Shown one piece after another: positions 3,716 to 42,754 of a stretch of DNA of 64,000 nucleotides. Numbering within the stretch: the first letter of the stretch is position 1; each line of letters starts with the position of its first letter. The notes beneath the pieces are model-generated. The model saw nothing but the letters and a program-made list of their open reading frames with translations. It did no database searches and was not told the origin of the DNA. The stretch is from Minisyncoccota bacterium. Its GTDB lineage: Bacteria > Patescibacteriota > Minisyncoccia > Phycocordibacterales > Phycocordibacteraceae. The stretch is taken from positions 556,450 through 620,449 of the forward strand of contig DASWXP010000002.1 in the NCBI GenBank assembly GCA_036405415.1. The letters run 5' to 3'. Both the position numbers and the translations under genes were made by a program.

Positions 3716-4684
3716 ATGACCAAGATTGTGACTATAGGGGGCGGGACCGGCACATTCGTGGTCCTTTCAGGACTGCGCCGCCTGCCAGACGTTGAGCTCA
3801 CGGCTATCGTCACGAGCGCGGATGACGGAGGTTCAACGGGGAATCTGCGCGACGCGTACGGGTTCCTGCCTGCCGGGGATTCGCGGCAGGCGCTCGTTGC
3901 GCTCGCGGAAGACGGGAACGTGCTGCGCGACTTGTTTGCGTATCGGTTCGAGAAGAGCGAGGTGAAGGGGCACAATCTCGGGAACCTCTTCCTTACGGCG
4001 CTTACGGACATTCTCGGATCAGATGCTGCAGCGCTTGAAGAAGCATCAAGGATTCTGCGCATCTGCGGGACGGTGGTACCCGCGACAGAATATCCTGCAA
4101 CCCTCGTAGCGACGCTTAAGGACGGTACCGTTCTCCGGAACGAGCGGCATATTGATGAGCGTGTCGGAGGCCGCGCTCGGATTGCTGAGATCGCACTTGA
4201 GGAAAATCCTGAAATGTCCCAGGGAGCGCGCAGCGCGATAGAGTCCGCGGACCTGATAATCATCGGCCCGGGGGATCTCTACACGTCAAGCATCGCGGCG
4301 CTCCTGCCGAATGGCATGAAAGAAGCGATCGGAGGCGCCAAGGGCCGTCTTCTGTACGTATCGAATCTGTTTACGAAGTCCGGGCAGACCGAAGACTATT
4401 CGATCAAGGATCATGTGACCGAGGTGGCGCGGTACGCAGGACGCGAGCCTGACATCATTCTCGTGAATCAGGGAGGGTTAACCGAGGACGTGCTCTCTCG
4501 ATACGCTCAGGAAGGGGAGTACCCGCCAAAGGACGACTATCTCGCGTCTGATACGAGGGTACGCAGGCTACCGCTCGTTTCGGTGTATGCTGTTCCTGCA
4601 GTGCCCGGGGACCCGCTTCCGCGCTCCCTGGTGCGTCACGAGCCCGCGAAGCTCGCTGCAGCCATCGCCACTCTTTTCTCATGA
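3716..4684 (+). CDS. YvcK/CofD-family (UPF0052, gluconeogenesis factor-like) protein
   Basis: N-terminal IVTIGGGTG...VTSADDGGSTG motifs characteristic of the YvcK/CofD family. Confidence 0.7.
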   Translation: MTKIVTIGGGTGTFVVLSGLRRLPDVELTAIVTSADDGGSTGNLRDAYGFLPAGDSRQALVALAEDGNVLRDLFAYRFEKSEVKGHNLGNLFLTALTDILGSDAAALEEASRILRICGTVVPATEYPATLVATLKDGTVLRNERHIDERVGGRARIAEIALEENPEMSQGARSAIESADLIIIGPGDLYTSSIAALLPNGMKEAIGGAKGRLLYVSNLFTKSGQTEDYSIKDHVTEVARYAGREPDIILVNQGGLTEDVLSRYAQEGEYPPKDDYLASDTRVRRLPLVSVYAVPAVPGDPLPRSLVRHEPAKLAAAIATLFS

Positions 4685-12329: not shown

Positions 12330-13101
12330 GTATGCACATCCTTCCAAAGCGGAGCGCCATATAGACGAAGAGGGCGAGGTTCCAGAGGTTTCGAGATCCA
12401 ATCTCGCGCGTAAGACGCGCGTACAGCCCGAGCCTAGAGCGGAACGATGCGCGCTCATGCGTGACGCCCCCTGGCAGATACCCTTCCGAATATGTTCCCG
12501 GAAAGGGTAGGTACGTGAACCGGGGACATGCTCTCGCTATCTGCGAGAAGAAAAACCACTCCTCGCCATTCTTTGCCGAAGAAGGGAAGACGCATGCCAG
12601 CGCGTGCACCGAGTTGATGCAATGCGTCGCATCTCCGCTGAATCTCTTCGTTATGAGGTACTCGCGATAATAGGAGACCTCGGAACAGCCCGTGCGGTTC
12701 TTCGTGAGCCGTGTACCGCTAGAGAGGACCCGGTCTGACACAAGCCAGCCATATGGTCGTTCTGAGAGCGTTCTTGCAAACTGCTCAAGGCAGTCGCTAT
12801 CGAGCCAGTCATCGTCATCAAGGAGAATGATGTACCCTTTAAATCCTGAATTTCGCAGGTGCGCGAGTGCAGCATTGAGGGATGCGTTCTTTCCTTCGTT
12901 CTCGGTGTTGCGTATATATGTGATTCTTTTATCTTCAGCGACGGATCGTTCGAAATCGCCATAGGGAATCTCTGGTGAATCGTTCACGCATACGAGTTTC
13001 CATTCTGGATAGGATTGCGCGCGAATGCTCTCAAGGGCCCTTATGGCGAGCGCTTCGCGAGCGTGAGTAGGCATGAGCACGGCGAATCGGACGGGTAGCA
13101 T
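12298..13101 (-). CDS. GT2-family glycosyltransferase
   Basis: FAVLMPTHAREA...VCVNDSPE...ILLDDDDW motifs; start ambiguous (13125/13101/13074). Confidence 0.55.
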   Translation of the reverse strand: MLPVRFAVLMPTHAREALAIRALESIRAQSYPEWKLVCVNDSPEIPYGDFERSVAEDKRITYIRNTENEGKNASLNAALAHLRNSGFKGYIILLDDDDWLDSDCLEQFARTLSERPYGWLVSDRVLSSGTRLTKNRTGCSEVSYYREYLITKRFSGDATHCINSVHALACVFPSSAKNGEEWFFFSQIARACPRFTYLPFPGTYSEGYLPGGVTHERASFRSRLGLYARLTREIGSRNLWNLALFVYMALRFGRMCIPKRASVPVSR

Positions 13102-18621: not shown

Positions 18622-18804
18622 AAGTTTTTTTCTAAAAATTAATTTTTATTTTTAAAACTTATCCACATATAAAAATATTTCTTACACAAAAAATATTTTT
18701 CAGACGCATACTTATCACTAACACGCATGTGTAAGAAATTTTCGTAAGAAAGATTCTTATCGTGCGGGTCGAAGATATCAGTCATAGCAAAACACTCGAG
18801 ACCT
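18622..18804 (+). promoter_or_regulatory. AT-rich intergenic region upstream of histone-like sORF
   Basis: Strongly AT-biased stretch in a ~60% GC genome; likely promoter region. Confidence 0.35.
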
Positions 18805-18978
18805 ATGGCAGCAAAGAAGAAGACCGTTCGCAAGGCAGCTAAGAAGTCGGTAAAGAAGGCAGCTCCTAAGAAGAAGACTGCAAAGAAGACCGTCAAGAAG
18901 GCAGCTAAGCGTCCGGCAGCAAAGAAGAAGGCTGCGAAGAAGGCTCCTGCGAAGCGCAAGACCGCGCGCCGCAAGTAG
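18805..18978 (+). CDS. small Lys/Ala-rich histone H1-like / nucleoid-associated basic protein (57 aa; missed by ORF track)
   Basis: ATG 18805 to TAG 18976-18978 encodes MAAKKKTVRKAAKKSVKKAAPKKKTAKKTVKKAAKRPAAKKKAAKKAPAKRKTARRK, followed by a hairpin terminator. Confidence 0.5.
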   Translation: MAAKKKTVRKAAKKSVKKAAPKKKTAKKTVKKAAKRPAAKKKAAKKAPAKRKTARRK

Positions 18979-19000
18979 CCCCTCTTCGACCCTCTTATGC

Positions 19001-19028
19001 AAAGCCTCCCGTACGGGAGGCTTTTGCG
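19001..19028 (+). terminator. rho-independent terminator (10-bp stem, GTAC loop, T-tract)
   Basis: aaagcctccc-gtac-gggaggctttt. Confidence 0.6.
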
Positions 19029-19049
19029 GTATAGTGGCCGATACCTATA

Positions 19050-19055
19050 TATAGT
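19050..19055 (+). promoter_or_regulatory. -10-like hexamer TATAGT 7 nt upstream of secA ATG, within CCTATATATAG motif
   Basis: tacctatatatagttattcct-ATG. Confidence 0.35.
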
Positions 19056-19062
19056 TATTCCT

Positions 19063-21620: not shown

Positions 21621-21677
21621 TGTTCATAAGAACCTCGATACTAGATAAAGTCAACGTTCCGTGATACGGTGACTCTA

Positions 21678-22658
21678 ATGGCATTTATCGATGAGATGCA
21701 GGTACACGCGGTCGCCGGAAAGGGTGGCAACGGTGTCGTGCGCTGGCTCCACCTCAAGGGCAAGGAGCGCGGCGGCCCTTCTGGAGGCGACGGGGGTCGT
21801 GGCGGCGATATTATCGTTGAGGGGGTTCATGACCTCGCGATCCTCGCTGCATACCGGTACACCAAGCGCATCGCTGCCGAGAACGGAGGTGACGGCGAGG
21901 GTAACGATCGGCACGGCAAGGACGGCGAACCCTACGTTCTCAAGCTTCCGGTAGGGAGCTCGGTCACGGTCTCCTCGACCGGTGAGACCTACGAGATCCT
22001 CGAGGCTGGACAATGCTTTACGGTCCTTAAAGGAGGGTCCGGAGGGTTCGGTAACGCGCACTTCAAAGGGTCTACAAACCAGAATCCTAAGCAGGTTACC
22101 TACGGCCGGAACGGCCAGAGTGGGGATATCCGGGTGAGTCTCAAGCTTATCGCAGACGCAGGCCTGATCGGCTTCCCGAACGCCGGAAAGTCATCCCTCC
22201 TTAACGAACTTACCCGCTCCCGGTCTCGGGTGGGTGCCTATCCCTTCACCACGCTCGATCCGCATTTGGGAGACTTCTACGGCCGTATCTTGGCCGATAT
22301 TCCAGGGCTTATTGAGGGCGCCTCGGAAGGGCGAGGTCTCGGTTCTCGGTTCCTCAAGCACATAGAACGTACGAGATTCCTTGTGCATCTCGTCTCGGCT
22401 GAGCAAGAAGACGTGGTTTCTTCGTATAGGGCCATACGGAAAGAGCTTGAGGCGTTCGGACACGAGCTTTCCGAGAAAGAGGAGCTCGTGGTGCTCTCGA
22501 AGACTGATGTGCTGAGCCCTAGTGAGGTTTTAGAGCGGGTTTCTGCCCTGGAGGCTGTAGCGGGGAAGGGGGTGCTCACCCTTACGATCCTCGACGACAC
22601 CTCGGTTAAGGCCTTCGCGGATGAGCTTACCAAGCGCCTTTCGGCACCGGTTTCCTAG
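21678..22658 (+). CDS. obg: GTPase Obg/CgtA
   Basis: Obg fold N-terminus (FIDEMQVHAVAGKGGNG), GFPNAGKSSLL G1 motif, DIPGLIEGA. Confidence 0.85.
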   Translation: MAFIDEMQVHAVAGKGGNGVVRWLHLKGKERGGPSGGDGGRGGDIIVEGVHDLAILAAYRYTKRIAAENGGDGEGNDRHGKDGEPYVLKLPVGSSVTVSSTGETYEILEAGQCFTVLKGGSGGFGNAHFKGSTNQNPKQVTYGRNGQSGDIRVSLKLIADAGLIGFPNAGKSSLLNELTRSRSRVGAYPFTTLDPHLGDFYGRILADIPGLIEGASEGRGLGSRFLKHIERTRFLVHLVSAEQEDVVSSYRAIRKELEAFGHELSEKEELVVLSKTDVLSPSEVLERVSALEAVAGKGVLTLTILDDTSVKAFADELTKRLSAPVS

Positions 22659-24149: not shown

Positions 24150-24188
24150 CTGTTATCAGAACTTCCTTCCAAGTACTGTTTATAAGCT

Positions 24189-25103
24189 ATGTTAACCGAG
24201 GCAAGAAAGCTATATAGTATATGCATGGATGAGATAACTATTGGTGACAAGGTCTATATCTCGTCAAAGCGCGCCGCAAAAATTACTGGTTATGCGAAGG
24301 ACTATGTCGGCCAGCTTTGTCGTGAGGGCAGGGTTGAAGCGCGACTGGTAGGCCGAAACTGGTATGTCCTGGAATCTGCGATCCGTGAGCACCGCTTCGG
24401 TTCTGCGCATGAATCCAGCAATGTAGCAGCTAGCTCTGAGGAGGTTCCTGTTGAGGATAGGGCAAATACGTGGCAGAAACCTACATATATACCTGAAAAT
24501 CCTTTGATGGTGCCAGAACTTGCCCAGAAGCCTGTTCAAGAGCCAGTTTCAAGCCCTGCGATAGCTGATATGCAGTCTGCTTGGAGGGAGTGGTTCTCCG
24601 ATAAGAAGACAGTTGATGCGCTTCCTGACGGATCTGAAGACTTTAAGGACGAATATCTCCCTGTAGTGCTTGAAAGTGCCGAGCCTGTAGAGATAAGAGA
24701 AGAGGAAACCGTAACCCTGCAAAGAATAGAGTCTCCAGTTGAGGCAAAAAAGCCTGAAAGCAGTGAGGAAAGTGAGGTTGAGATTCACAAATCCTACGCC
24801 TCTAGGGAGACGGGAGAGCTGGTACCGCATACCAGCATTCCTGTAGTCGACCTAACACCTAAGAGCCAGGGTAGAAGCAGGCCTGTAAAGCCACTAAATC
24901 CGGCAGCAACCGCTAAAAAACCTTCGGGCAGTGGTGTAACCCGAGCGCTCCTGATTGTTCTCGCTTCGGTAGCAGTGCTAGTAGCTGTTGTAGGAACCGG
25001 TAATGCCGACAGATACATTGGCACTACTAGTACCGATTCAGGACCACAGAAAGCGATTCTGGACTTTCTCGGAGGAAAGAGTAGCTATAAAAGTACCCTA
25101 TAA
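24189..25103 (+). CDS. bitopic membrane protein with N-terminal excisionase-type HTH (HTH_17-like), acidic linker, C-terminal TM helix and short exposed tail
   Basis: KVYISSKRAAKITGYAKDYVGQLCREGRVEARLVGRNWYV matches the HTH_17 pattern and the N-terminus of the giant ORF at 25688; TM ALLIVLASVAVLVAVVG near C-terminus; alternative start ATG 24225. Confidence 0.5.
   Translation: MLTEARKLYSICMDEITIGDKVYISSKRAAKITGYAKDYVGQLCREGRVEARLVGRNWYVLESAIREHRFGSAHESSNVAASSEEVPVEDRANTWQKPTYIPENPLMVPELAQKPVQEPVSSPAIADMQSAWREWFSDKKTVDALPDGSEDFKDEYLPVVLESAEPVEIREEETVTLQRIESPVEAKKPESSEESEVEIHKSYASRETGELVPHTSIPVVDLTPKSQGRSRPVKPLNPAATAKKPSGSGVTRALLIVLASVAVLVAVVGTGNADRYIGTTSTDSGPQKAILDFLGGKSSYKSTL
24213..24218 (+). 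promoter_or_regulatory. -10-like hexamer TATAGT 6 nt upstream of ATG 24225
   Basis: gctatatagtatatgc-ATG. Confidence 0.3.
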
Positions 25104-25147
25104 AATATAGATATCTCGTCTCGTATCAAAGAGATTAGATAAAACGT

Positions 25148-25183
25148 ATAGAACACCCTCAACTTATGTTGAGGGTGTTCTAT
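25148..25183 (+). repeat. perfect 16-bp inverted repeat, 4-nt loop
   Basis: atagaacaccctcaac-ttat-gttgagggtgttctat. Confidence 0.45.
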
Positions 25184-25310
25184 CAATTTAGATCAGCTAA
25201 ATAAAGGCTAACCACTAGCAAATATGTACAAAAAGTCATTCTGTAGGAATTAATACTCCGTAGACGGTCTCTTAATAACTGGCAAAAAATTAGAGATTAA
25301 GAGCAATTAA

Positions 25311-25348
25311 CGAGCCCTACATACCTATATATAGATATGTAGGGCTCG
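25311..25348 (+). repeat. 38-bp near-perfect palindrome centred on CTATATATAG
   Basis: cgagccctacata-c-ctatatatag-a-tatgtagggctcg; candidate operator. Confidence 0.45.
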
Positions 25349-25687
25349 TACAAATTAAACTTCTGCGCGCAATTACTAATAAATACTTAGTTAGTCCGAA
25401 TAACCGATACGCTCCTATATATAATTGTCTACTTACACACGAAACTAGTTCTGGTAGGAATTTTGTATCCCTTCTGTTGCAAGGGAGTTGAATCTAAGGG
25501 TGGTAATTCTCTTGGATTTGAGTTTAGTGTCTATGCTGCGATGAATTTTTTCGTAATCAGTAGTAATGGATCTTGTTGGCAATTTTTTTCATGATGAGTG
25601 CCTGAAGAATATCCACAAAGAAACATACTAATTAAAAGAAATATCAAGGTAAACTGTAGTTAATTCGGATATCCGACCTACTGCACC

Positions 25688-28600
25688 TTGAACAAACTTC
25701 TTCAAGAAAAATTAATTTCTACGAAAGACGCCTCTGCTCTTTCTGGATACACTTCCGACTATCTTTCACGGCTATGTCGCGAAGGAAAGATTGATGGCAC
25801 GCAGGTCGGAAGAACATGGCTTGTAGATCGTGATTCGCTTGAGAAGTTTATTGCAACGCAGATTGATCGAAAGGCTGAGCTTGCAGAATCGCTTGCACGC
25901 GAGCGCGAGCGCGAGTATCGCTTGAGCAACACGAAATCCATCTCGATGACTCGTTCGATGGAGCGGGGAACGCGGGATGCGGTCAACTCTGTGGTTGCAG
26001 CGTTTGCAAAGGCACGGCTGCCTCACGGTATGCCGGCATTCTCAGGGACTGCTGTTGCTATGGCACTTACCGCAATCGTACTTGCTGGTAGCGCAGCAGC
26101 CGCAGGATCTGGAGTGGTCGCGCGCATGGGTGCCGGTCTTCTCGCGGCAGCGCTCGAGGCTCGAGTCCAGGTACTTGAAGGAGCACACTCACTTGCGATT
26201 GATTCATTAGCGCATCGAGAGACGCTTGCAGAGACAGCGCGCGAAGACCTTGCGCTTGATGAGAATGCATTTGCAAACGTGCAGAGCATAAAGCTTGAAG
26301 AAGTGTCTTCGGCACTTACGCTAGCGATGCGCGACGTGCATGCCCCCGTAGCCCCAACGCAGATTGCATACGAGCGCGCAGAAGAAATCTCTGCTACCTA
26401 TGCGAGCGATACTACGTTTGCAGAAAGCGCAAAGGCAATTGGATCGGCAGTACAGAATCCTAACGTTACAGCCTCTGTTGTGGCTGATGGTCTTATGCGC
26501 ACCTACGCATCGGTTGGTGCGCTTGCGCTCCGCGACATTGAGACGACGCTAAGCGCACATGAGGATGCGGTCACTGCAGCAGGCGAAGGATTGTTCGCGC
26601 TAAGCACCGGCATGCGCGATGGTGCACGTACGCTACCGCTTGCGGTAGGAAGTGCTTTCATAAGAGCGAGCGACGCGTCATTGAGTCTCTACGAACAGGG
26701 TGTCTATGGGTTCGCAGCGCTCTCCCAGGATGTCCCGCATACTCTCGTTGCTGCAGCGCTCGATACTGGCTCCATGGTTGGGGGACTCACACAGCTTGCG
26801 GTCACAGCTGCCCCTCGAGCGTATGAAGATGGGATGATTTCATTCAGTGAGGAGACCTCGCAGCTTGGAATGCGCATATCTGAAGGATCCTTTGCGCTCG
26901 GGGCCAATTCACACGGTCTCGTTTCAGGCCTCTTGATCGCTGAAGACCGCGCAATCGCAGGATTCATGCGCTCTGCTAGCGATACGGTTGCTCTAGCTCC
27001 CGCAGGTACCGGAAGCGCTTCAGCACAGCAGGGAATCGATCTGGTACCAAGCGCCATAACGAACGAAGTGCTGGGAATCGTAGGCAATATCGCGCTCTCG
27101 ATCGAGAACCTGGAGGGAGACATGCTTACCGCGTCTCCGCTCGCGTCTCTTAACCTCGACGCATTCGTTCCAGGATTCCTCAAGAATGTGACCGCGGTGC
27201 TTGCTCGCGCATTTGATAGCGCGCTCCATGGAATCCTCGGACCGCTCGCGGGCTTCTTTGGCGCAGGCGAAGAGGCGGGCATCGCGATCATTCCTGGAGA
27301 CGGTGCGAACATCCCGGGTCCTGGTGACCGCGGCTCGAGTGAGGCTTCGATCGTGTACAACGGGCCGGTAACAATCATCCGTAATGAGTATCCTTCCGTA
27401 ACCTACGGAGGTGTACCTCAGGCATACGTCGATGAACGATTCGACTTCCTCCGTCGCACGCTCTACAACCGCATCGAAGACGTTGCTGATGACGATGATG
27501 TCGGCATCACGACGCTCGACGGCCAGACCGGCAATGACATGTTGCTTAATAATCCGACGATCGTCGGAGGGACCATCACCGACAGCGAACTCGATGTCGC
27601 AACCTCGACCGTAACCGGCTCGTTCACCGTAAACGGGAACGCATCGATCACCGGCGACCTCACTGCTACGAATGCAACCACGACGAATTTCTACGCGACT
27701 GCCGGCTCCTTCGCCTCGGCGACCATCGATGTGCTTACCGCGCCGTCTGCGACCATAGCGAATCTCATCGTCACGAACAGCACCACCACGAACGCGACGT
27801 CGACCAATCTCTACGTTTCCAATCTCGCAGGCCTCGTAGCGACGATTACCGATGCGTTCTTTACGAACGTCACCGCATCGCTCGCGACGCTCACGAACGC
27901 GGTCGTAACGACGCTCACCGCTACGAATGCGACACTCACGAACGCCACGTCGACCAACGCGACCACCACCGGGTCGCTCGCGCTTACGTACGTGACCCCG
28001 TCACGCCTCCTGTCCGTAGACGCGTTCGGGAAAGTCGTCGCGACCAATCTCGCGTCATGGGTAACCGGCTCAGCGAACCAGATCACGGTGACGGATACGG
28101 GCGCAGGCGGCATCCAGCTCTCGCTCCCGTCAGTACTCGTCTTCGGCACATCCTCTCCGACCACGCTTGCCGGAAACGGCGCTACCAGCACCTTCGGCGG
28201 CGGCATCTACGCGCCGCGCATCGAGGCGGGAGAGTACATCGCAGGCCCGTACGTCCTCGCCACCTCGACCACCGCAACCTCGGCGTTCTCAGGCAACATA
28301 GCGATCGGTCGGAACGCCACGATCGGTACCAGCGCGTCCGATTCGCTCGTCGTGAATGCGACCGTCGGCTCTAACTTCGTCCCGTCTCTTAATAACGCGT
28401 ACGATCTTGGCTCCGCCGCGAATAACTGGCGCCGTATCTACGTAGATGAAGTGGTAGCGAACAACCTCTCCGCAGCGTCCACCTCGATCGCAGGGACGGT
28501 ATCGAGCGACTTCTCCATAAACTCTGATAACGCTTCGAACGATACGGAGGACATGAGCCTCACGTTCAATCGCGGCGTCGCGTCCCCGAACGCTATCCTC

Positions 28601-31600
28601 GCGTGGAACAGCACGACGAAGCGCTTCGAGTTCAACATGCCGGTCTTCTCCGCAAACGGCATCTTCACAAACGCGACCACGAGTAACCTAGCCGTTACGA
28701 ACTTCACGCTCGGCGGTTCCACCTTTACCTCGCTCCTCGGATCAGGACTCTCGAACGTTGGGGGCGCACTTACCGCAGACCTCGGCGCGCTCGACGACAC
28801 GTTCTTCAGGCAGGACGGGAACTCTTTCGGCGCTACCGCAATCCTTGGCACGAACGACAATAACAATCTCGCGTTTGAGACGAACGGGTCCACGAAGATG
28901 ACCCTCCTTGCCAACGGCTACCTCGGTATCGGCACCACCTCTCCGACGACCCCGCTTTACGTCTCGAGCGACTTCCCGCGCATCACCATCGACAGGAATA
29001 CGAACAACAGCGGCAACTCGCTCATACTCTTCAACCAGGAGTCCGTACTCAAGGCCGGGATAGGAATCGCCGGAGGAACCAACGGCGTGATTGCTGGAAG
29101 CGTATCCGGAGACCTCGTCGCGCGCACTCAGGGAGGGAACATGTACTTCTCGAACGATGGCACGGGAGCGACCTCGCAGCTCTCGATTATCAATAACGGG
29201 AACGTCGGTATCGGTACCGTGACGCCATCGACGCTCTTGCATCTTCATACGGCCGGCGGAGGTGACGCACCTCGCCTTAAGTTCACGAACGGCACCACCG
29301 GCACGACCGCGACAGACGGCGCGTTCGTGGGCATCTCGAACACCTCGCAGCTCGATGTGTGGAACTTCGAGAGCAATTCCTTGCGGTTTGCCACAGCGAA
29401 CACCCTGCGGATGGTAATCGATGCTACGGGAAATGTAGGAGTAGGAACCTCGTCTCCAGCTTTCGCGGCGATATCAGCCCGGTATCTGGCGGTTGACGGG
29501 TCAAGTCTCGGAGCGGATATTCCTGGTGCGGTCGGTGCCGGAGGCAACATCACAGGAACTACGAATAACATCGGCCAGTTTGCGTTCTACAACAACGCGC
29601 TTTCAACCGCAGAGAAGCGCAACGCGACGATTGTAGGAACGAACGACGGGGCGCTCAATAGCGGTCTCATCAGATTCTTCACGGCGAATGCGGGCACGCT
29701 AGGCGAACGCATGCGCATCACGTCAACCGGCAACATCGGTATCGGCACCACAACTCCGGATCGAATGCTCTCTGTGGCGGGTACGGGACTCTTCACCGGC
29801 CTCACGACCTTCCTCTCCGGCTTTGACATCGGAGGCTCGACGTTCACGTCGCTTCTCGGGAGCGGCCTCACTAACGTAGGCGGCGCGCTTACGCTTGACC
29901 GCACGGGAGACTGGACCGGAACATTCGATGGACAGGAGGGGTCGTACTATCTTGCGCGCGCGAACCATACCGGTACGCAGCTAGCGTCTACCATCTCTGA
30001 TTTCGCAAGCACCGCGCGCGGACTCTTCAGCTCGACCGCGACGGGCCTTACCTATACTTCAGGCACGGGCGTCTTTTCTCTGACATCAGGCTACGAGATT
30101 CCGCTGACCGCTTCAACTACCAATTGGAACACCTTCTATAACACCCCTTCGACCCGCATCACCGCAGGTTCTGGCCTTGCATGGGCAGGCAACACGCTCT
30201 CAGCAGACCTTAATACCCTCGACGACACGTTCTTCAGGCAAGACGGCAATTCCTTCGGAACGACCGCAACGCTTGGTACGAATGACAGCAATGCGCTCGC
30301 ACTTGAGACCAATGGATCAACCCGGCTCACCATCACGTCCTCAGGGAACGTCGGTATCGGAACGAGCTCGCCGACGCATGCACTGTCCGTAAACGGAAAT
30401 GCCTATATACAAGGAGGAATCGGAAGCGGCATCGAGCCGGCTTCAGTGCCGGGCATACTCTTGCTTAACCGCACGGGCGGCGATCCGGCCATAGTGTTCT
30501 ACGAGAATGGTTCCCAGGTCGGACAGCTGCGCGGAGACGGCACCAACAACAAGATCCAGTTCAGTAACGCGCTCGCAACCCGCTTCCCGTTCACTCTTGA
30601 TCTGACGACAGAGAACATCGGTATCGGCACCACAACTCCGGAGGGCCGCCTTACGCTTGTGGCGAGCTCGACAGGAGACTCGCTTGTCATCGCAAGCTCG
30701 ACCGGCGCTCGGCAGCTTACGGTCAATACGAATGGCTCCCTAATCTTCTCTTCAAGCGGGCAGTCCTACAAGCAGGTTACGGGCGTAGATGAGGACGGGC
30801 CTTCGATCTTCCTTAACCGCACGCTCGGCAATGAAGCCACGGCAAACGAGCACGGCATCATAGACCGCAACACCTTCACGCGCGCGACCAAGGCCTATAA
30901 CTCGTACGACTCACAGCCGTACTTTACGGGTACGAACGACTACGATCACTACGCAGGATTCCAAGCCCGGGGCGCGATGAACTCGACCGGCACGCTCAGC
31001 CGTTATCACGGCTTCGCATCGACGCCGAATGTCGCCGCTGGTACGGTGACGAACCTGTACGGCTACAGCGTCTACGACGCGGTCGGTGCCGGAACGGTGA
31101 CGAACAACTACGGCCTCCACGTACAGAACCTTACGAAGGGAACGAATAACTTCGCGATATACACCGACGGAACTACAAAGTCCTATTTCGGCGGAAACGT
31201 CGGCATCGGTACCACATCTCCAGCGTCACTACTCCACGTCTCTTCTAACACATCTACGAGTTTTACCGTCGAGCGCGATAGCGTTACTGATCCTGGAAAG
31301 ATCCAGCTCATTACTGAATCGGCAGAGAACAGCATTTACTCGAGAACTAACACAACAGCCGCAAAGAACTTGCGATTTGTAATCGGTACTGCCGAGCGAA
31401 TGCGCATCGATACGTTAGGCAATGTCGGTATCGGAACGACGTCGCCATCCCGACTGCTCTCCGTTGGTGATGACGGAACATACTCCGCGTACTTCTCCGG
31501 TCGCGTGGGTATCGGAACGACATCGCCTACCCGCGGTCTAGTTCTTACTTCTGCAACAACGGTTAACGCAGCCCTCCAGCTTGCTTATACGGCCTCAGGC

Positions 31601-34600
31601 GGACGCACCTGGGACATCAATCCGTTCCGAAACGGCGTGAGCAATGCCGGATTCGAGATTTACGATGTCACCGCAGGAGCGAGCCGCATTGCGATTGACG
31701 CGTCAGGGAACGTAGGTATCGGCACTACATCTCCTTCTGCGAAGCTTGATGTGTACGGGAACGCAATCCTTTCATCGGCAGGCTCTACCCTCAGTTTCGT
31801 TAAGAGCGGCGCAGGAGAGACGCCTGCAATCCTCTTTACGCACTCGACGAATGCCGGCGGCTCCCGCATAGTCTCGAGCGGCTCGAACGCGCAGGCGCTG
31901 ATCATCGATCTTGATCAAGATGCAACCTCAAATTTCGATGCATTCAGCATCAGGGCGAACAATACGAGCACGCGATTCCACATTGATAATGCGGGGAATG
32001 TCGGTATCGGCACCACATCTCCATTCGCCAAGCTTCATGTATATGGCGGCGCATCAGGAGTTACTACGCCTTCTGCTACCGCAGACGATTTCGTTGTTGA
32101 AGGCAGCTCGACGAGCCAGAACGGCTTTTCGCTCCTCGGTCCCGACAGCGCGTACGCTTACCAAGTATTCGGTTCTCCCTCAGACAGCTTTGGCGCGTTC
32201 TCGCGGTGGAACTTTAATAATAAGCTTTTTGAAATAGGAACCGCAGATGACACCGGTGCCGCAGACCTTGCCTTCGTGACCGGAAACTCTTCCGAGAAAA
32301 TGCGCATTCTTGATAATGGGAATGTCGGTATCGGCACAACCACGCCAGGGCAGCTGCTCCATGTATATGGCGGAACGAACCCGGCTATCCGCGTTACCGG
32401 AAGCGGCAACACGAGCGCGTACATGGACATTGCAACCGATGGAACCGGCACGGCTCAGACGCGATACATAACAGGGAATACGGCACGGTGGGCCGTAGGT
32501 GTCGACCCGGCAGCGAATAACAATTTCGTGTTCGCGAATAGCTCCGCTGTTACGAGCGGTCAAAGGATGGTGCTTACGACTTCTGGAAATCTCGGTATCG
32601 GCACTGTCGCGCCGCAGACGGCACTTTCTTTCGCGACAACGTCTGCCGCATCCGGCATAACGCTCTATCAGACAGCTGACGAGACGACGAATTACGCGCG
32701 GGGACGCATGTACTACAACGGAAGCGTGTTTACGCTTCGCACGGAAAAGGCAGGATCAGGAGCCGATACGCCGCTCAGTATCTACCCATCAAACGGCATC
32801 GCGAATATCTACTTCTCAACATTAGGCACAGATGGAAATACCGGCTTCGTGCAGATCGGCGCTGCCAATAACACACAGAACCGCATCAGCGTGCATCTCG
32901 GTGTCGGCTCGCACGGCGCTTCTGTAGGAACGCAGACACAGGTCGCTATCCAGCCTACGATTGCGCAGGCTGGAACTGCGAACTACATTGCGCTCTCCAT
33001 CAAGCCGACCGAATCATCGCTCGGATCCGGAAGCAGCTATCTGTTCCAGGCGGGGACCGCAGCCAATCCTGGGATGTTTAACATCACGAATGCTGGAAAC
33101 GTGGGTATTGGAAACTCGAATCCTGGCTCGCTTCTGAATGTTTCTACCGATACGGTCGGCGCAGCAGCTTTCATGGTCAATACTGTAACGGGGGGCCAGG
33201 CACGATGGCAGATTACAGCGGCAGGTTCGCCAACAACCTCGCGCTTCATAATGTCTGCGCGAGACAGCTCGAACAACACTGCTGTGTCCATCGATCCAAC
33301 GGGAACAACCTATTTCAATACTGGAGGCAATTTCGGTATTGGCACTTCCAGCCCGTCACGCAAGCTTACGGTTGAAGGCGACGCATCTGTCTTGTTCCGC
33401 CTCGATCGAACCACGACGGTTAACAGCTATAATACGATTCAATTCAACAGCCCTTGGACAGGTGGAAGCTACACAGCACAGATAGGAACGAAGGCAGAAA
33501 GTACGTATGCCAATAGCTACACGTACATCTCGGCTGATAATACGAACATTCACCTCGCGGTAACCACTGCGGGTAACGTGGGCATCGGCACCGTCAGTCC
33601 AACCGACAAGCTTGCGGTGCTCGGAGACACGAATGGATACATAAACGCTCGCGTACGCAATGATAATGCCGGATCTTCAGCGTATGCGATGATCGGCATC
33701 AATGCTTCAGGCAACTCCTGGGGCATGCGCATGGGGTCTGCAGCAAACAACAGCAACAGGCTTGATTTCGTCTCAGACGCCTTCGGTACGCCTGTAGAAA
33801 GGTTGAGCATCACGACAGCAGGAAACGTCGGTATAGGTACCACGACTCCTACCGCACTGTTCCAGGTAGGAAGCGCGACTCAACGCGGCTTCAAAGTGTA
33901 TGGAAATAATAGTCCTTATGGGACGGTGCTCGCCGGTGATGCTGGTGGTTGGGCGTTTGGGTATAATTTTGAAGGTAATGCAGGAGCAGCTCTCGGTGGA
34001 TTCGGAGCGTTAGGGAACTCAAATAGCCTGGACAGTTACTATATCGGTACGTTCGCGAATCAGAGGATGACTATCCTTAGCGGGGGTAATGTCGGTATCG
34101 GGACTACAAGCCCGTACGCTGGACTCACGATTGCCCGCGGAGGCGGTACTGCAGCATTTGCCGACACAATCCTTTCGCTAAACAGCTCATCGAATGTTGA
34201 GCGATTCAGATTCTCCGGAGACGGTTCGATGCAGTGGGGAACAGGTGCGGCAAACGGCATCCTTTCTTGGGATACAAATCTCGCGATAGTGGGGGGAAGC
34301 GCAGGGAACGCCCTTTCTCTACGTGCGAACAATGCAGACGTTGTCCGCATAACAACTGCAGGCAACGTCGGCATCGGCAACTCGGCGCCAACCACACCAC
34401 TTGATACGCAGGGCATAATCACGACGCGCTCCGCGGCAGCGGATACGCCGGGCGCGCCAACCGAAAGCATTCGCATGTCGCTTACGGGATATTCGCCAAC
34501 AGACAGATATAGGAATTCGATATTCAACTCGGTATCGACCATCCCCGCTTCTTCGGTAATGCAGTTCAGGGTTAATAATGGTGATACGACGCAGGCGACG

Positions 34601-37600
34601 GTAATGACGCTGCTGGGCAATGGAAACGTAGGCGTCGGCATCACGAATCCAAGCTACCGATTCACCGTTCAGGATACGACGACAGACGGTATCGCAGGAC
34701 GATTCTCTCAGTCAGGAACGGGCACGCCCTTTGGTGTCTACTCGTCAGCAACAGGCGCGGGAACGCAGAACGTTGCCGGCTACTTCCAGACAAGCGGCGC
34801 AACTACGAATATCGGCGTAAGTGCTGACGTTGCGTCAGGCGCGAACAACTACGCCTTCTACGCAGCCAATACTGCAAAATCGTACTTCGCAGGCAACGTC
34901 GGCATCGGCGTTACGAGTCCCGCAAGCCAACTCACGGTTGGAAAGACAACCGGAGGTGTCATATCGATCACGACCGCAGGAACCGCGGGTACCACCGCCT
35001 CGCCGCTTCCGGCGACCCTCAACTTCGTTGGGTACGGAGAAGTCACCAAGGGCGCTATCAGCGTGCAGGACCGAACCGGAAACGTCCTCGGAGGATGGAT
35101 GAAGTTCCAGACCGCCGACAGCTCTGACGTGCTTCAGGACCGAGTAATGATAGATAGGGCGGGCAACTTCGGTATCAATACGATGACGCCGCAGGCAACG
35201 CTCGTGGTGGGCGGCGCGCAGAGCGGCAATGCAGGCCTCGAGATCGTTCCAGGCTCCGGCATCGTCGCGCAGTCGTACAACCGAAACACAAGCGCGTATG
35301 CAAGCCTCAGCTTCGACGCGTCAGCAATCGCATTCCGCCCGAGCGGCTCGACCATGCTTACGGTCAACGGCGCAGGAGCTGCGGTGGGAACCGCGAGCGT
35401 CTCTGACCGCTTCGTCGTGGAGGTCGCGACCAATAAGCGTCTCGGTGTAGAAGAGATCACGAGCTCGGCAATCAGCGACTTCTCGACGGGCGGCGCGAGC
35501 ATCCAGTTCTCGCGCGCGAGCGATGGGGCAGATAACCTGACCGGTATATTCACCTACAACAATTCCGGAAACACGAGCATTAACCTCGCCATGGCAGCAC
35601 GCAGCGACTTGGTGTTCGCAGCTGGCGGAGGCGCAGCGTACACGAACTCTCCAGAGCGCATGCGCATAACGAGTTCCGGTAACGTCGGTATCGCTACGTC
35701 CACTCCTGGCCAGGCGCTCACGGTTGCAGGAAGCACGTACATAACCGGAGGTCTTGGCATCGGTAACGTCAACACGACTGCAGGCTCGCTCCTCACCACC
35801 TCGCACATAACGATGGGAACGCTCTCGCAGTTCTCTGCTGCAGGCGGCTCAGCACTCACGTCGCCAGCAAACGGCGTATGGCGCGTAACCAACAACGCAG
35901 GAACCGACTTCAGTCGCTTCCAGTTCGGCGGAGGCACTTCAGCATTCCCGTCTATCAAGCGCAATGGCGCAGGTCTCGACTTCCGCCTGGCGGATGATTC
36001 CGGATATGCGACCACGACCCATCAGGGCGGTCTCTTCCTTGGAAATGTCGGTGTGGGAACCACGACGCCAGGGTACAGGCTTAGTGTTGGAGGCGATATC
36101 AATTTTACCGGCAGCCTTTATCAGAACGGCGTCGCGTTCGGCGGCTCGTCACAGTGGACGACGAGCGGAAGTAACATCTACTACAACACTGGCAATGTCT
36201 CGATTGGTACGACCACAACGTCATCCACAACGAAGCTCTTCGTGGTAGGTCCGAACACTGGTACTGTCGCATTCTCGGTTGGCGATAGGTTTAGGGTTGA
36301 TGGCCTAGGAAATCTTTTCTGGGGCCAAACCGCAGGAACTGTTAGCGGCATTCTTTCATCTGCTGCGAATGGTGACGTAACGATGGGTTCTCAGTTTGCT
36401 AATAGAGACTTGTACATTCAGACAAGTGCATTTAACGCTATCCAAATCTACGGAGGTGTTACCGGCACGCTAGGAAACATCAAGCTTGGCGCATATGGAG
36501 CGGGTACACTCCAGACAGACGGTGCCGGAAACGTCACTGCTTCATCGGATGAGCGCCTCAAGGATATTCAAGGCAATTTCTCGAGAGGGCTTGCAGATCT
36601 CATGGCCATAAATCCGATTAATTACCGATGGAACGCAGCTTCAGGGTTCGATACTGAAGGCATGTACAGCGGATTCTCAGCACAGAACGTCAAAGATTCT
36701 ATCCCTGAAGCGGTAGGAACAGATCCGAGGGGATATCTGACGTTGTCGGATCGACCAATACTTGCTGCTACCGTGAACGCAGTGAAGGAGCTCAATGTCC
36801 GCACGCTTTCACTCGCACCAGCGGCTCAGAACCAGGAAGCACACTCGCTCGCGGTATCCGCAGACGCGTCCGTAGCAGGCCTCCTCACGGTCTCCGGCAC
36901 CGGCTCATTCCTCGGTACCGTAGAAGCAGCGTCATTCCTGACGACTGCAGACGCAGGACTTCCTGAGAACGTGCTCACGGCAGGTCAGGCAGACCTCTAC
37001 AAGATGGCGCGCTTCGCCATCTCAGAGATCAAGGACCTCAAGGAGCGCACGGACCTCCTTGCGGTACGCATCGACGACATCGAGACCCGTGTTGCCGCGC
37101 TCGAGGCACAGGGACAGAGCGCCTCCTCGACCATGGCCGGGGCCGTTGGCCTCACGGCAAGTTCCCTCAAGAGCGCGCTCGAATCCTTCGGTATCTTCAT
37201 CGAGAACGGCATCGCGCAGTTCAATACGCTCGTATTCCGACAGCTCGCGGTTGCCAAGGACGAAGCGGGCGACTCTTCCGCAGGCAGCGTAACCATCCTC
37301 GCGGGCAACACCGTGACGCAGGTGCAGAACCCGTACGTGCTCCCGACCTCAAAGGTATTCGTCACCTTCACGAGCCCGGTGGTTGGCGCGTGGTACATCA
37401 GCCACAAGGAAGCAGGCAGCTTCCGCGTGACGCTCGCCGAGTCCCAGCCTTCTGACGTCTCCTTCGACTACTTCATCCTCCAGACCGAAGGCCAGCTCGC
37501 AAGCCCGGGCGCCGCAGGACCGAGTCAGCAGAACCAGGTCCCGACGCCGGCACCGCAGCCGTTCCAGCCGGTGTTCCCGCAGGACGGGGGAACCACGACG

Positions 37601-41508: not shown

Positions 41509-42231
41509 ATGGGAATCATAGTCCCGGCCATACTTCCGGTATCGCGCGAGGACCTCGAGCAGAAGCTCGATATTCTTGACGGTGTCTGCGAAGAGGTGCA
41601 GGTAGATATCGTGGACGGCGTCTATGCCGGTCCTGCGACCTGGCCCTATACCCGGGACGCGTCAGAACCGTCACGCATGCTCGCGGATGGGGAATTCCTC
41701 CCGAAAGCCGGTCGCTTCAGGATTGAAATCGATCTCATGAGCGGAGACCCGGAGTCTGTGGCGGGAACCTGGATCGGGCTCGGCGCTGCGCGTCTTACGA
41801 TCCACGCGGAGAGCACGCGGTACCTGCCGCGCTTCCTTGCGAGCACCCGCTCCCTGTACGGGCATGACAAGGAGTTCGAATCCGACCTGCTGTCGCTCGG
41901 CCTTGCTATTGGCGCAGAGACCGACCTCTCGCTGATCGAGCCCTATATCGACAAGATCGATTACGTGCAGTTCATGGGCATCCGTACCATAGGCAGGCAG
42001 GGCGAGCCGTTCGATATGCGCACGATCGCGAAGGTCCGGGCATTCCGGAAGAAGTACCCGAAGACGCCGGTGCAGGTGGACGGAGGCGTGACGCTCAAGA
42101 ACGCCGCAGAGCTCCTTGATGCGGGTGTGGCGCGCCTTGTCGTGGGCTCTGCGATCTGGCGCGCAGAGAATCCACTCGACGCGTATCGCGCGCTCGACGC
42201 CCTCACCGAGCAGCATGGGCTCTATGCATAG
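41509..42231 (+). CDS. rpe: ribulose-phosphate 3-epimerase-like (divergent)
   Basis: IVPAIL N-terminus, VQVDIVDG, later FMGIRTIGRQGEPFD motifs reminiscent of Rpe TIM barrel. Confidence 0.55.
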   Translation: MGIIVPAILPVSREDLEQKLDILDGVCEEVQVDIVDGVYAGPATWPYTRDASEPSRMLADGEFLPKAGRFRIEIDLMSGDPESVAGTWIGLGAARLTIHAESTRYLPRFLASTRSLYGHDKEFESDLLSLGLAIGAETDLSLIEPYIDKIDYVQFMGIRTIGRQGEPFDMRTIAKVRAFRKKYPKTPVQVDGGVTLKNAAELLDAGVARLVVGSAIWRAENPLDAYRALDALTEQHGLYA

Positions 42232-42754
42232 CATCCGCGGATTCACTCTTATCGAGCTTCTCGTAGTGATAGCCATCATCGGCGTGCTCTCGTCGGTAGT
42301 ACTCGCAAGCCTCAGTCAGGCGCGCATCAAAGCACGCGACACGTCCCGGATATCGCAGCTCGCGGAGATCCGGAAAGCGCTCGAGCTCTATTATCTCGAT
42401 AAGGGCTACTATCCGGCATCTAACTGCGGCTGGGACTGCAACGGATACCGCTACAGCTACGACAGCTCATGGAATGCGCTCGCGAGCGACCTTGCTCCGT
42501 ACATGAGTACGTTGCCGCGCGATCCCGTGAATACCGGCTGCACGCCGTGGAGTGCGAATTGCTTCTCATACGCGTACGGGAACGTAGGACGCAGCACCTA
42601 TGCGCCGCAGTACGATCTCACCGCCCAGCTCGAAGACCCCTTGAGCGCGTACCGCTGCACAGCTCGCGGTTACCGGTTCTATTTCAATAATCAGGGCTGG
42701 TGCAGTGCATCTGGGGGATCCTATTCGGATCAGATTTACGAAGCGTCGCCATAA
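42215..42754 (+). CDS. type IV pilin / pseudopilin (prepilin-type N-terminal cleavage-methylation domain)
   Basis: MGSMHSIRG|FTLIELLVVIAIIGVLSSVVLASL class III signal; ATG 42215 overlaps rpe stop. Confidence 0.75.
   Translation: MGSMHSIRGFTLIELLVVIAIIGVLSSVVLASLSQARIKARDTSRISQLAEIRKALELYYLDKGYYPASNCGWDCNGYRYSYDSSWNALASDLAPYMSTLPRDPVNTGCTPWSANCFSYAYGNVGRSTYAPQYDLTAQLEDPLSAYRCTARGYRFYFNNQGWCSASGGSYSDQIYEASP

Follow-up and report, generated by a model that had tools for sequence, protein, structure and literature searches.

In the window (the whole 64-kb stretch of DNA analysed here), the gene for a small helix-turn-helix (HTH) protein, which starts with ATG at 24225 and ends with a stop codon at 25101–25103, is followed by a 584-bp gap (25104–25687) and then by a giant gene that encodes a surface protein. 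The gap contains no open reading frames (ORFs) of at least 80 amino acids, and its GC content is 0.348 versus 0.577 across the whole window; the 584-nt segment with the lowest GC in the entire sequence (0.336, about 5 standard deviations under the mean) starts at 25082, the runner-up (0.409) starting at 18316. The first-pass annotation described an AT-rich, non-coding gap of 584 bp, which is borne out (about 35% GC against about 58% in the window), and called it the only long non-coding stretch, which holds in part: a second AT-rich gap is present at 18622–18996 (375 bp, GC 0.42), but contains a 57-aa Lys-rich ORF. An all-against-all comparison of six-frame stop-to-stop segments from 11 gaps detected no small conserved ORFs, matches being confined to the promoter block, itself conserved, where they fall in differing frames, and a start-stop ATG-TAG at 25337–25342 is not conserved.

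The order obg, gatB, small HTH gene, AT-rich gap, giant gene is common to relatives from Candidatus Paceibacterota and is held in 11 loci that were retrieved via the small HTH protein (31–58% identity). The gaps of the relatives have a GC content of 0.30–0.41 and span 583–712 bp in most loci, the intergene distance in loci L014 and L016 being about 600 and about 730 bp when small mechanical ORFs are discounted. Conserved gap sequence is limited to six short islands, with the remainder 18–45% identical and about 450 AT-rich bases poorly conserved. The giant gene starts with TTG in the clade of the window, and a separate clade among the relatives has an ATG start. This conservation supports the earlier view of the gap as a genuine non-coding control region. 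The promoter comparisons draw on 32 sequences, 21 of which were retrieved by an exact search with the leader box listed below, so that the invariance of the box among these 21 holds by construction; the 11 protein-seeded loci form the unbiased set. The features of the gap and of the two promoters compared with it are as follows.

19041–19058, plus strand: secA promoter region ATACCTATATATAGTTAT, which holds the other copy of the M2 14-mer; TATAGT at 19050–19055, 7 nt before ATG
24197–24206, plus strand: CGAGGCAAGA, M1-like (consensus CGAGnCrAGA), located in the promoter spacer of the small HTH gene
24213–24218, plus strand: TATAGT, predicted −10 of the small HTH gene, leaderless type, inside GCTATATAGTAT, 6 nt before ATG
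25114–25124, plus strand: M1 motif TCTCGTCTCGT, 10 nt past the stop codon of the small HTH gene
25148–25183, no strand assigned: perfect 16-bp stem with a 4-nt loop, probable bidirectional-type terminator of the small HTH gene
25276–25288, no strand assigned: M5 motif TAACTGGCAAAAA, single copy per locus, confined to the gap
25310–25349, no strand assigned: palindrome of 20+20 nt with one mismatch, conserved only in its core (25321–25334)
25388–25408, plus strand: TAGTTAGTCCGAATAACCGAT, degenerate second leader box, 269 bp 5′ of the main one
25420–25425, plus strand: TATAAT, −10-like, inside the third copy of CCTATATATA (25414–25423), weakly assigned candidate distal promoter; most loci of the window's clade keep a −10-like AT-rich stretch here, with TGT after it
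25609–25617, plus strand: DnaA-box-like 9-mer ATATCCACA, one mismatch to the consensus TTATCCACA (8 of 9); most relatives have the exact consensus
25650–25655, plus strand: TAAACT, putative −10 hexamer of the giant gene's proximal promoter, TAnnnT in homologues
25661–25677, plus strand: leader box TAATTCGGATATCCGAC, 17 nt, candidate operator just before the TTG start
25678–25690, plus strand: clade-specific leader extension CTACTGCACC with the TTG start codon (25688) of the giant gene (4097 aa)

The strongest element, overlooked in the first-pass annotation, is the right end of the gap, that is, the 9-mer, the −10 hexamer and the leader box. The hexamer 5 nt ahead of the box reads TAnnnT, with the T1, A2 and T6 of a sigma-70-type −10, in all 32 distinct homologous sequences, in a fixed register and with the inner three bases varying. 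A conserved −35 element (TTGACA-like, 16–18 nt upstream) of the giant gene's promoter was not found, and two-hexamer promoter scans came back empty for the L006, L069 and L009 gaps and for the plus strand of the window; with promoters that have no −35, such scans carry no information. The 9-mer lies about 40 bp 5′ of the −10 hexamer and starts either 51–53 or 61–63 nt 5′ of the leader box, the two registers being about one helical turn apart. Within 346 kb of related DNA, exact TTATCCACA occurs solely in the giant gene's promoter and in one other conserved AT-rich promoter region. The arrangement shares with DnaA-box promoters, at which DnaA regulates transcription, a 9-mer at 8/9 or 9/9 of the consensus at a fixed distance 5′ of the −10, but consists of a single box; the consensus is that of E. 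coli, to which the present organism is unrelated, and binding by the patescibacterial DnaA is putative. In E. coli, where TTATCCACA is the consensus, DnaA prefers pairs of boxes 2–3 bp apart, and single consensus boxes are often unbound in vivo (PMC11317965).

The leader box occurs once in the 64-kb window and once in a 674-kb contig (Ga0181349_1000001), and among the 11 protein-seeded loci it is exact in 8, near-exact in 2 and replaced in 1. Of the homologous contigs, several stem from the Hainich aquifer. It is non-coding, given that its frame relative to the start codon varies between clades. The leader is identical over 17–39 nt between species in which the neighbouring protein is only about 50–60% identical; this invariance exceeds the typical need of an operator and hints at an additional constraint, at the RNA level or of another kind. 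At 39 nt, the shared stretch is also longer than the k-mers normally used in assembly and probably causes metagenome assemblies to break at the giant gene. Within the box lies TCGGATATCCGA, a perfect 12-bp palindrome (25665–25676), which we propose on sequence grounds as the best operator candidate of the locus. The same HTH N-terminus follows every true metagenomic occurrence of the box. The loci informative on co-variation are just two, namely L011, where a different leader palindrome stands alongside a clearly diverged HTH, and L005, where the box carries 4 changes and the HTH sequence is as in the window; given the latter, box and HTH do not strictly co-vary. The degenerate copy of the box is a direct repeat (D3; 80% identical), and its spacing from the main box is 259–278 bp in six lineages.

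At the left end of the gap, M1 is the left-hand part of a dyad or short hairpin (25112–25141; fold computed), is 99% conserved in the clade of the window and is found in nearly all homologous loci, in many of them as a perfect dyad of 8–12 bp. The M1-like motif in the promoter of the small HTH gene keeps its position, 3–6 nt 5′ of the −10, in about 35 homologous loci. Downstream of M1, the perfect 16-bp inverted repeat reported earlier is confirmed (arms 25148–25163 and 25168–25183, 100% complementary); its stem has 7 G-C pairs and begins 44 nt past the stop codon of the small HTH gene, and none of 200 shuffled sequences folds equally well (z = −7.6). An A-run precedes the stem, and the T-rich tail is better on the minus strand: in a terminator scan, the plus-strand tail CAATTTAGAT misses the rule of 5 T in 8, and the minus-strand tail ACGTTTTATC passes. 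Hairpins of unrelated sequence, flanked by an A-run and a T-run, occupy the equivalent position in L005–L009, L012, L014, L015, L061, L064 and L069, and relatives show clear T-runs on both sides; the presumed terminator is conserved by position and not by sequence. The repeat is most likely a bidirectional terminator of the small HTH gene, judging from its sequence and placement. It shares with Rho-independent (bidirectional) terminators a G-C-containing 16-bp stem, a 4-nt loop and a location just past a stop codon but differs in having a poor U-tract as its plus-strand tail (CAATTTAG), the scan accepting the minus strand only.

The promoter strings outside the gap conform to a genome-wide pattern. 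Of 26 TATA[CG]T hexamers, 15 are followed within the next 5–12 nt by the ATG of an ORF of at least 80 amino acids, compared with 2.5% of random positions. This pattern indicates that leaderless promoters, as predicted, are widely used in the genome and that the strings upstream of secA (true start, ATG 19063) and of the small HTH gene are their −10 elements. Leaderless-mRNA promoters have been mapped in mycobacteria (PMC3898074, PMC4633059) and modelled in GeneMarkS-2 (PMC6028130); they share with many genes here, including secA and the small HTH gene, a −10-only TAnnnT placed 6–12 nt before ATG. In comparison, the giant gene appears exceptional in having a conserved leader of 16–26 nt, no Shine-Dalgarno sequence and, in the clade of the window, a TTG start.

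Both flanking genes had been reported to encode HTH modules, and indeed both proteins start with an excisionase-type HTH_17 domain, although that of the small protein scores below the Pfam cut-off. Against HTH_17 (PF12728; cut-off 27), the isolated domain of the giant protein scores 32.9 bits and the small HTH protein 23.1 bits; TIGR01764 ('excise') gives the flanking HTH 26.1 where 28.8 is needed. A search of the HTH sequence against the PDB yielded a single match, to TraN/AM32 (E = 0.19). A single-sequence structure model (pLDDT 80) contains a strand-helix-helix-strand-strand core followed by a 30-residue helix and superposes at 1.5–2.1 Å on known structures (Xis 4j2n, 1.5 Å; BldC 6amk, 1.6 Å; TraN 4p0y, 2.1 Å), with a TM score against Xis 4j2n of 0.73–0.75 relative to the target and weak Foldseek E-values (0.03–0.4). 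The flanking domain, as modelled, is a winged-helix fold of the Xis/BldC type. The fold of the excisionase/MerR-superfamily binders (Xis of phage Pukovnik, 4j2n; Tn916 Xis, 1y6u; BldC, 6amk; TraN, 4p0y) thus begins both flanking proteins, but whereas those family members are small and soluble, here it is fused to a long helix and a transmembrane segment, and the giant protein adds about 3,950 extracytoplasmic residues. Both candidate binders are tethered to the membrane, which weighs against a role at the leader box. A cytoplasmic DNA-binding domain on one transmembrane helix is also the architecture of ToxR, CadC and TcpP, which carry OmpR-type winged helices and sense via a periplasmic domain. 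Domains of the Xis/BldC type typically bind direct repeats as monomers, not palindromes as dimers, which weighs against the same role.

The first-pass annotation described a near-perfect palindrome of 38 bp (25311–25348), called it an obvious operator candidate and pointed to identical and related strings upstream of secA and the small HTH gene. The palindrome is present, as two loopless arms (25310–25329 and 25330–25349) that are 95% complementary, and it folds far better than expected (z = −7.5 to −7.9). Its conservation in related genomes is confined to the core, referred to as M2 (ATACCTATATATAG at 25321–25334; dyad consensus ATACCTATATATAGGTAT), which is 86% conserved in the clade of the window and corresponds in relatives to an AT-rich dyad of 14–18 bp; the core being kept, the refuting condition set in the first-pass annotation, a palindrome that is not conserved in related genomes, does not apply to it, but the outer arms are replaced by unrelated sequence or absent, and conservation fails for the 38 bp as a whole. 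The 14-mer ATACCTATATATAG occurs exactly twice, at 19041–19054 and 25321–25334, versus 0.08 expected, and CTATATA occurs 11 times versus 2.9 expected (0 of 100 shuffles). The identical string upstream of secA is thus real, if one base off the coordinates first given, and the related string GCTATATAGTAT lies at 24209–24220 as claimed. Both strings stand 6–7 nt before an ATG, as do leaderless −10 elements throughout the genome, and therefore give no evidence of a shared operator. The better operator candidate is the 12-bp palindrome of the leader box.

That the palindrome or its core ATACCTATATATAGGTAT is nevertheless the operator of an HTH protein, uniting secA and the giant gene in one regulon, appears rather unlikely to us. 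The core is dyad-symmetric and well conserved in the clade of the window, the secA promoter contains an identical 14-mer, and there, in the clade of the window, it resembles an 18-nt insertion between an ancestral −10 (GGTATAGT) and the ATG, an operator-like position; moreover, similar dyads occur 45–70 nt 5′ of the secA −10 in L014 and L016, and ACC-W6-9-GGT dyads are overrepresented in 404 kb (10 versus 2.2 expected). Yet M2 also coincides exactly with the −10 of leaderless genes, namely the one at 62708–63475, the small HTH gene of L067 and obg of both L012 and L014; it may be no more than a strong −10 region. The outer arms lack conservation, a different dyad takes the equivalent place in the ATG-start clade, and no gene follows M2 within the gap. 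We read M2 as a promoter-like or protein-binding dyad, not a 38-bp operator, that has the sequence of the organism's −10 region. The long arms could themselves be a mutational by-product, given that template switching at a short inverted repeat 'corrects' and extends quasi-palindromes, in which case they would lack a function of their own, or a lineage-specific hairpin insulator; this is a possibility of some weight, although we would not bet on it. Palindromes of 40–42 bp with unrelated arms are built on the same core in the window, L014 and L031, those of other lineages span 12–18 bp only, and terminator-like A/T-run flanks occur in L031 only, but selection for a hairpin or cruciform could account equally well for three independent extensions at one site. 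The conserved dyad arms are too short for a dif site and show no resemblance to parS, and both candidates were rejected.

The suggestion that the region encodes a small RNA found no support in Rfam matches, excess folding or covariation, and we regard it as unlikely. Two bodies can be envisaged: a minus-strand RNA of about 105–140 nt running from M5 (about 25281) to the terminator (about 25142), or a plus-strand RNA from TATAAT at 25420 to a hairpin at 25488–25521. The minus-strand consensus of M5 in relatives, G-TATTTT-yrCCAGTTAAA, comprises a −10-like hexamer and a conserved start region and matches the GG-TATAnT style of −10 in this genome; the 16-bp hairpin has its better T-run on that strand, with symmetric A-runs and T-runs in relatives; on the plus strand, terminator-like hairpins lie in mid-gap in the window and L009. 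Both candidate bodies, however, are just 18–40% identical between relatives, and the mid-gap terminators are not conserved. Rfam 15 gave no hit in the gap at gathering score when the whole window was searched, and at E-values up to 10 the segment 24900–25900 yielded just chance hairpin matches to microRNA models. The segment 25350–25687 folds no better than shuffled sequences (z = −0.1), and RNAalifold on 6 sequences paired the two box copies with each other, a pairing broken in the window, without covariation (term, −0.16 kcal/mol). Also rejected were an ARAGORN 'tRNA-Asn' at 25445–25521, which has its anticodon at position 32, lacks an Rfam tRNA match even at E = 10 and is unconserved, and a leader hairpin that would sequester the TTG (25643–25691, z = −4.4), the outer stems of which lie 5′ of the inferred transcription start and are missing in the ATG-start clade. 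AT-rich, conserved, non-coding DNA with a conserved 9-mer that matches TTATCCACA could also be part or all of a chromosomal replication origin, but the gap holds one box with at most one mismatch and the whole window 10 versus 6.1 expected, that is, no cluster; genes to the left and right alike lie on the plus strand, cumulative GC skew climbs on either side without a minimum, and neither dnaA nor dnaN turned up in the Pfam scan of eight flanking genes, so that we rejected an origin as extremely improbable. Nor is it at all probable that the giant protein phase-varies through inversion of the promoter segment of about 270 bp that separates the two box copies. Two related near-palindromic boxes do flank the proximal promoter, the gene downstream codes for a surface protein and the HTH belongs to the excisionase type, but the repeats agree at no more than 12 of 17 positions, the ON orientation is shared by all 32 distinct homologous sequences, and four independent (Logan) assemblies run straight through the left repeat in one orientation; inversion was rejected.

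We therefore think that the gap is probably a conserved transcription-control spacer ahead of the giant surface-protein gene, neither a protein gene nor a structured-RNA gene, and the best reading of its parts, in which we have reasonable confidence, is a terminator, one or more promoters and operator-like sites that control the giant gene. Such a spacer is an ordinary kind of element, the motifs of which are unusually invariant and hitherto undescribed. Under this reading, the transcript of the small HTH gene would cross the M1 dyad and end at the 16-bp hairpin acting as a bidirectional intrinsic terminator, and the palindrome would be a lineage-specific extension of the conserved M2 dyad. 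The giant gene would be transcribed from the proximal promoter, with the DnaA-box-like 9-mer upstream of TAAACT and no −35 consensus. We infer a transcription start at about 25662, which would give a 26-nt leader that lacks a Shine-Dalgarno sequence and begins with 16 nt of the nearly invariant box containing TCGGATATCCGA. The box would then act as an operator, a dimeric sequence-specific DNA-binding protein at +1 to +17 blocking RNA polymerase; the most economical candidates for this binder may be the flanking excisionase/MerR-like HTH domains, each followed by its long helix, and the degenerate upstream copy could serve as an auxiliary site. A main operator over the transcription start, paired with a weaker one a few hundred bp off, is familiar from lac O1/O2 and the gal operators; in contrast to those looping operators and to ToxR, CadC and TcpP, binding and looping are predicted here by analogy.

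A more far-reaching version, which we put forward as a speculation more apt to be wrong than right by a wide measure, is that the leader box and M1 are cis targets of the adjacent membrane-tethered HTH domains, such that the promoter of each HTH gene would contain a site reserved for that gene, the gene or its promoter would be coupled physically to the membrane through the giant protein or the small one beside it, and the whole would form an autoregulating DNA-membrane tethering module specific to Paceibacteria, with the DnaA-box-like 9-mer tying expression to the replication cycle. Our literature search found no description of promoters in Patescibacteria (CPR) or of the present locus, and the module, if it exists, would to our knowledge be the first cis-regulatory system to be defined in CPR bacteria. 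Large surface proteins of CPR bacteria are often assumed to mediate attachment to host cells, and if the giant protein does so, its switch would be of biological interest. Almost nothing is known about gene control in uncultured Patescibacteria, and the locus supplies concrete, testable parts: a mostly leaderless genome with one exceptional gene for a giant surface protein, a phased DnaA-box-like element and two adjacent membrane-anchored domains, candidate regulators, predicted to bind DNA.

The gap at 25104-25687 is flanked by two plus-strand ORFs, a small HTH gene on the left (292 aa) and the giant surface-protein gene on the right (4097 aa), and its GC content is 0.348 vs 0.577 for the window, which bears out the strong AT-richness reported in the first-pass annotation. 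Among the 584-nt windows over the 64 kb, the GC minimum (0.336, about 5 s.d. under the mean) starts at 25082, and the second-lowest value is 0.409, at 18316. As first described, the gap is in essence the only long stretch of non-coding DNA, given that the other AT-rich gap contains an ORF and two further apparent gaps have normal GC, one of these being filled by a pilin-like ORF. A 212-aa ORF with a prepilin-type segment GFTLIELLVVIAIIGVL (42116-42754, plus strand) occupies an apparent 452-bp gap of the simple ORF map. Alignments with relatives delineate six conserved islands in the gap, the remainder being 18-45% identical. The features are:

18622-18996: second AT-rich gap, with a 57-aa Lys-rich ORF
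19050: TATAGT, predicted -10 of secA, 7 nt before ATG 19063
24213: TATAGT, predicted -10 of the small HTH gene, 6 nt before its ATG
24225-25103, plus strand: small HTH gene, ATG 24225, stop 25101-25103
25114-25124: M1, TCTCGTCTCGT, conserved island
25148-25163 / 25168-25183: arms of a perfect 16-bp hairpin with a 4-nt loop
25276-25282: M5, TAACTGG, conserved island
25310-25329 / 25330-25349: arms of the palindrome, 20+20 nt, one mismatch
25321-25334: M2, ATACCTATATATAG, core of the palindrome, conserved island
25610-25619: DnaA-box-like TATCCACAAA, conserved island
25655-25659: TGTAG, flank of the -10, conserved island
25661-25693: leader box and extension, TAATTCGGATATCCGAC and TACTGCACCTTGAAC, conserved island
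25688-37981, plus strand: giant gene, TTG start

Scanning genomes with the small HTH protein identified 12 relatives, each of them a metagenome-assembled genome that carries the label Candidatus Paceibacterota, Parcubacteria or Patescibacteria. The order obg, gatB, small HTH gene, AT-rich gap, giant gene is found in 11 of the 12, and in most of these the gap spans 583-712 bp with GC of 0.30-0.41, regardless of the genome GC (0.46-0.61). The spacers of about 600 bp in locus L014 and 730 bp in L016 are broken up by small ORFs of the mechanical ORF list. Because order and low GC are kept despite small-HTH-protein identity of just 31-58%, the AT-rich spacer is an old, maintained feature. In four short Logan contigs, identity to the window extends over the entire gap. 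We found no conserved small ORF in the gap and no Rfam family matching it, the right two-thirds fold no better than shuffles (z = -0.1), and the alignment fold is without covariation; hence, in our reading the gap is control sequence acting at the DNA level and not a gene. An ARAGORN 'tRNA-Asn' at 25445-25521 is unsupported. The gap motifs are in no RNA-family library, and we found no description of them in the literature.

The leader box, a 17-mer (25661-25677) with a 12-bp palindrome (25665-25676), is unique in the window and occurs once in a 674-kb contig of the metagenome scan. A metagenome scan with this 17-mer yielded 59 loci, of which about 33 are true homologues, the others being chance matches in unrelated GC-rich contigs. 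All true homologues share one architecture: T(T/A)ATCC(A/C)CA begins in one of two registers, 51-53 or 61-63 nt before the box, that differ by one helical turn (the pattern matched in 27 of 32 distinct sequences); a TAnnnT -10 hexamer (32/32) precedes the box by five bases; and the box is followed either by ATG directly or, in the window clade, by CTACTGCACC and then TTG, with the same HTH N-terminus downstream. A single variable base, 25678 (C or T, missing in L009), parts the box from the extension. Since the frame of the box relative to the start codon differs between the window clade and the ATG-start clade, the constraint on the box is non-coding. Among the unbiased loci seeded with the small HTH protein, 8 have the exact box and 2 (L005, L015) an altered form, and in L011, where the HTH is clearly diverged as well, another palindrome takes its place. 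In L011, a more distant relative, this palindrome, GAGATAGCTATATAAAATATAGATATCTC (region 12560-12690), has 19 nt in common with window 25099-25117, two additional ORFs lie between the small HTH and giant genes, and two tandem HTH repeats form the start of the giant protein. Further upstream is a degenerate copy of the box, at a distance of 269 bp in the window and of 259-278 bp in five other lineages. Four independent Logan assemblies (L001-L004) end, at points equivalent to window 25675-25695, inside or just past a 39-nt block, TGTAGTTAATTCGGATATCCGACCTACTGCACCTTGAAC, identical between several species; the assumed Logan k-mer (k=31) is shorter than this block, and a cross-species branch in the assembly graph is the likely cause.

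TTATCCACA is the E. coli DnaA-box consensus (PMC11317965). Its exact form occurs in 346 kb of related DNA only at the giant promoter and in the AT-rich gap that precedes the Lys-rich ORF and secA. A replication origin is argued against by the single box, the same-strand genes on both sides and the lack of a skew minimum. In the second AT-rich gap, the exact TTATCCACA (18659-18667) is conserved in relatives, with a -10-like ATACT or ATAAT about 40 nt past it; the 57-aa ORF (18805-18978) is Lys/Ala-rich and histone-like, and a terminator hairpin at about 19000-19028 lies ahead of the secA promoter.

Both the perfect hairpin and the palindrome are exactly where the first-pass annotation placed them, and each folds far better than shuffles (z about -7.5, 0/200 shuffles equal). 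At the equivalent site 3' of the small gene, relatives carry strong hairpins, unrelated in sequence, between an A-run and a T-run, the signature of bidirectional intrinsic terminators, so that the hairpin is most likely a terminator of this kind for the small HTH gene. In the window, the minus strand has the better T-run, and the plus-strand assignment thus draws mainly on position and conservation.

The palindrome had been proposed as an operator, with related strings at secA and the small HTH gene. Here the observation holds and the interpretation is right in part. What is kept in relatives is the core dyad, M2 (consensus ATACCTATATATAGGT/AT, 310-400 bp upstream of the leader box), present in the window, L006-L009, L014, L031, L042, L054, L061 and L069; a palindrome of 40-42 bp is found only in the window, L014 and L031, with different outer arms in each, and the dyad elsewhere spans 12-18 bp. 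Selection for a hairpin may account for the long arms, as may template-switch 'correction' of a quasi-palindrome. In four ATG-start-clade relatives (L024, L030, L038, L048), M2 is missing and another conserved dyad, TTCGCACAATGTT..AACATTGTGCGAA, occupies the equivalent place, 400-500 nt upstream of the box.

The window contains just two copies of the 14-mer ATACCTATATATAG, at 19041 and 25321 (0.08 expected), and CTATATA is over-represented (11 vs 2.9 expected). Upstream of the window genes, TATACT or TATAGT is found 6-12 nt before ATG, usually without a Shine-Dalgarno sequence, and 15 of 26 TATA[CG]T hexamers have the ATG of an ORF of at least 80 aa within the next 5-12 nt, compared with 2.5% of random positions; this layout is that of leaderless or near-leaderless mRNAs. 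Promoters consisting of a -10 only, GG/GC-TATACT or TATAGT, precede many genes (e.g., 775, 15419, 41496, 43013, 46133, 52316, 57814), and Shine-Dalgarno-like sequences are mainly seen before operon-internal genes (e.g., 39499, 49955); leaderless mRNAs appear to be the rule in this genome. The strings at secA and the small HTH gene are indeed present, but both fit this layout and are accordingly read as -10 elements instead. In distant relatives, secA is preceded by plain GGTATAGT or GGTATACT, 9 nt and ATG; in the window clade, about 18 additional bases with M2 lie between the ancestral-type -10 and ATG. Dyads similar to M2, ACC-W6-9-GGT (10 in 404 kb vs 2.2 in shuffles), are located in the gap and near secA, and others coincide precisely with the -10 elements of obg (L012, L014) and the small HTH gene (L067). 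M2 may act as a symmetric -10 module, as a protein-binding dyad, or in both ways.

The HTH modules noted in both flanking genes are supported, residues 1-71 of the giant protein passing the Pfam HTH_17 cut-off of 27 (32.9 bits) and the small protein N-terminus scoring under it (23.1). In a single-sequence model (pLDDT 80), a strand-helix-helix-strand-strand core leads into a helix of 30 residues. This model superposes to within 1.5-2.1 A, at E-values that are weak, on the Xis proteins of phage Pukovnik and Tn916, on BldC and on TraN, a secretion protein that binds DNA; all four bind DNA sequence-specifically. In the giant protein, the HTH is followed by a long helix and a hydrophobic segment (residues ~110-140), and near the C-terminus lie an intramolecular-chaperone domain of the Peptidase_S74 type (3620-3676) and a bacterial Ig-like domain (3983-4054), as are known in phage tail fibres and adhesins.

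The small HTH promoter (24160-24225) is highly conserved in about 35 loci: tGTTnATAAC, ~10 nt, aCGAGnCrAGAwA, 3-4 nt, TATAAT/TATACT, 6 nt, ATGGATGAG. The gene starts at ATG 24225, the mechanical ORF start at 24189 being wrong, and its predicted mRNA is evidently leaderless. CGAGnCrAGA in the promoter spacer is the reverse complement of M1, the dyad just 3' of the same gene. With an M1-type motif here and the box at the giant gene, the predicted promoter of each HTH gene carries a conserved motif private to that gene. The M1 10-mer TCTCGTCTCG is also found inside obg (21669-22658), at 22389-22397 (Leu241-Val242-Ser243), where two codon columns show the highest and second-highest synonymous conservation among the 105 conserved degenerate ones in 23 homologues (GTC 22/22, TCG 22/23; median top-codon share 0.48). 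Some 60 nt upstream (about 22320-22345) there is another constrained patch, GCCTCG..CGAGGTCTCGG, and these patches suggest a nucleotide-level function within the coding sequence.

In the mechanism we propose, the small gene transcript would terminate at the hairpin, and the giant gene would be driven by the proximal -10, with a start at about 25662 and the DnaA-box-like site upstream, where DnaA might act. The palindromic box, at +1 to +17, would be the operator, bound by a dimeric protein that could repress the giant gene; one of the adjacent HTH domains is the most economical candidate. The upstream degenerate copy would provide an auxiliary site. What the analysis establishes is the anatomy and conservation of the gap, the promoter grammar and the fold class of the HTH; the start site, the repression, the binder and a role of DnaA are inferred. 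The extreme invariance of the leader, over 17-39 nt between species, suggests an additional constraint beyond the operator role. We take the gap to be of an ordinary kind, a probable terminator, promoter and operator region.
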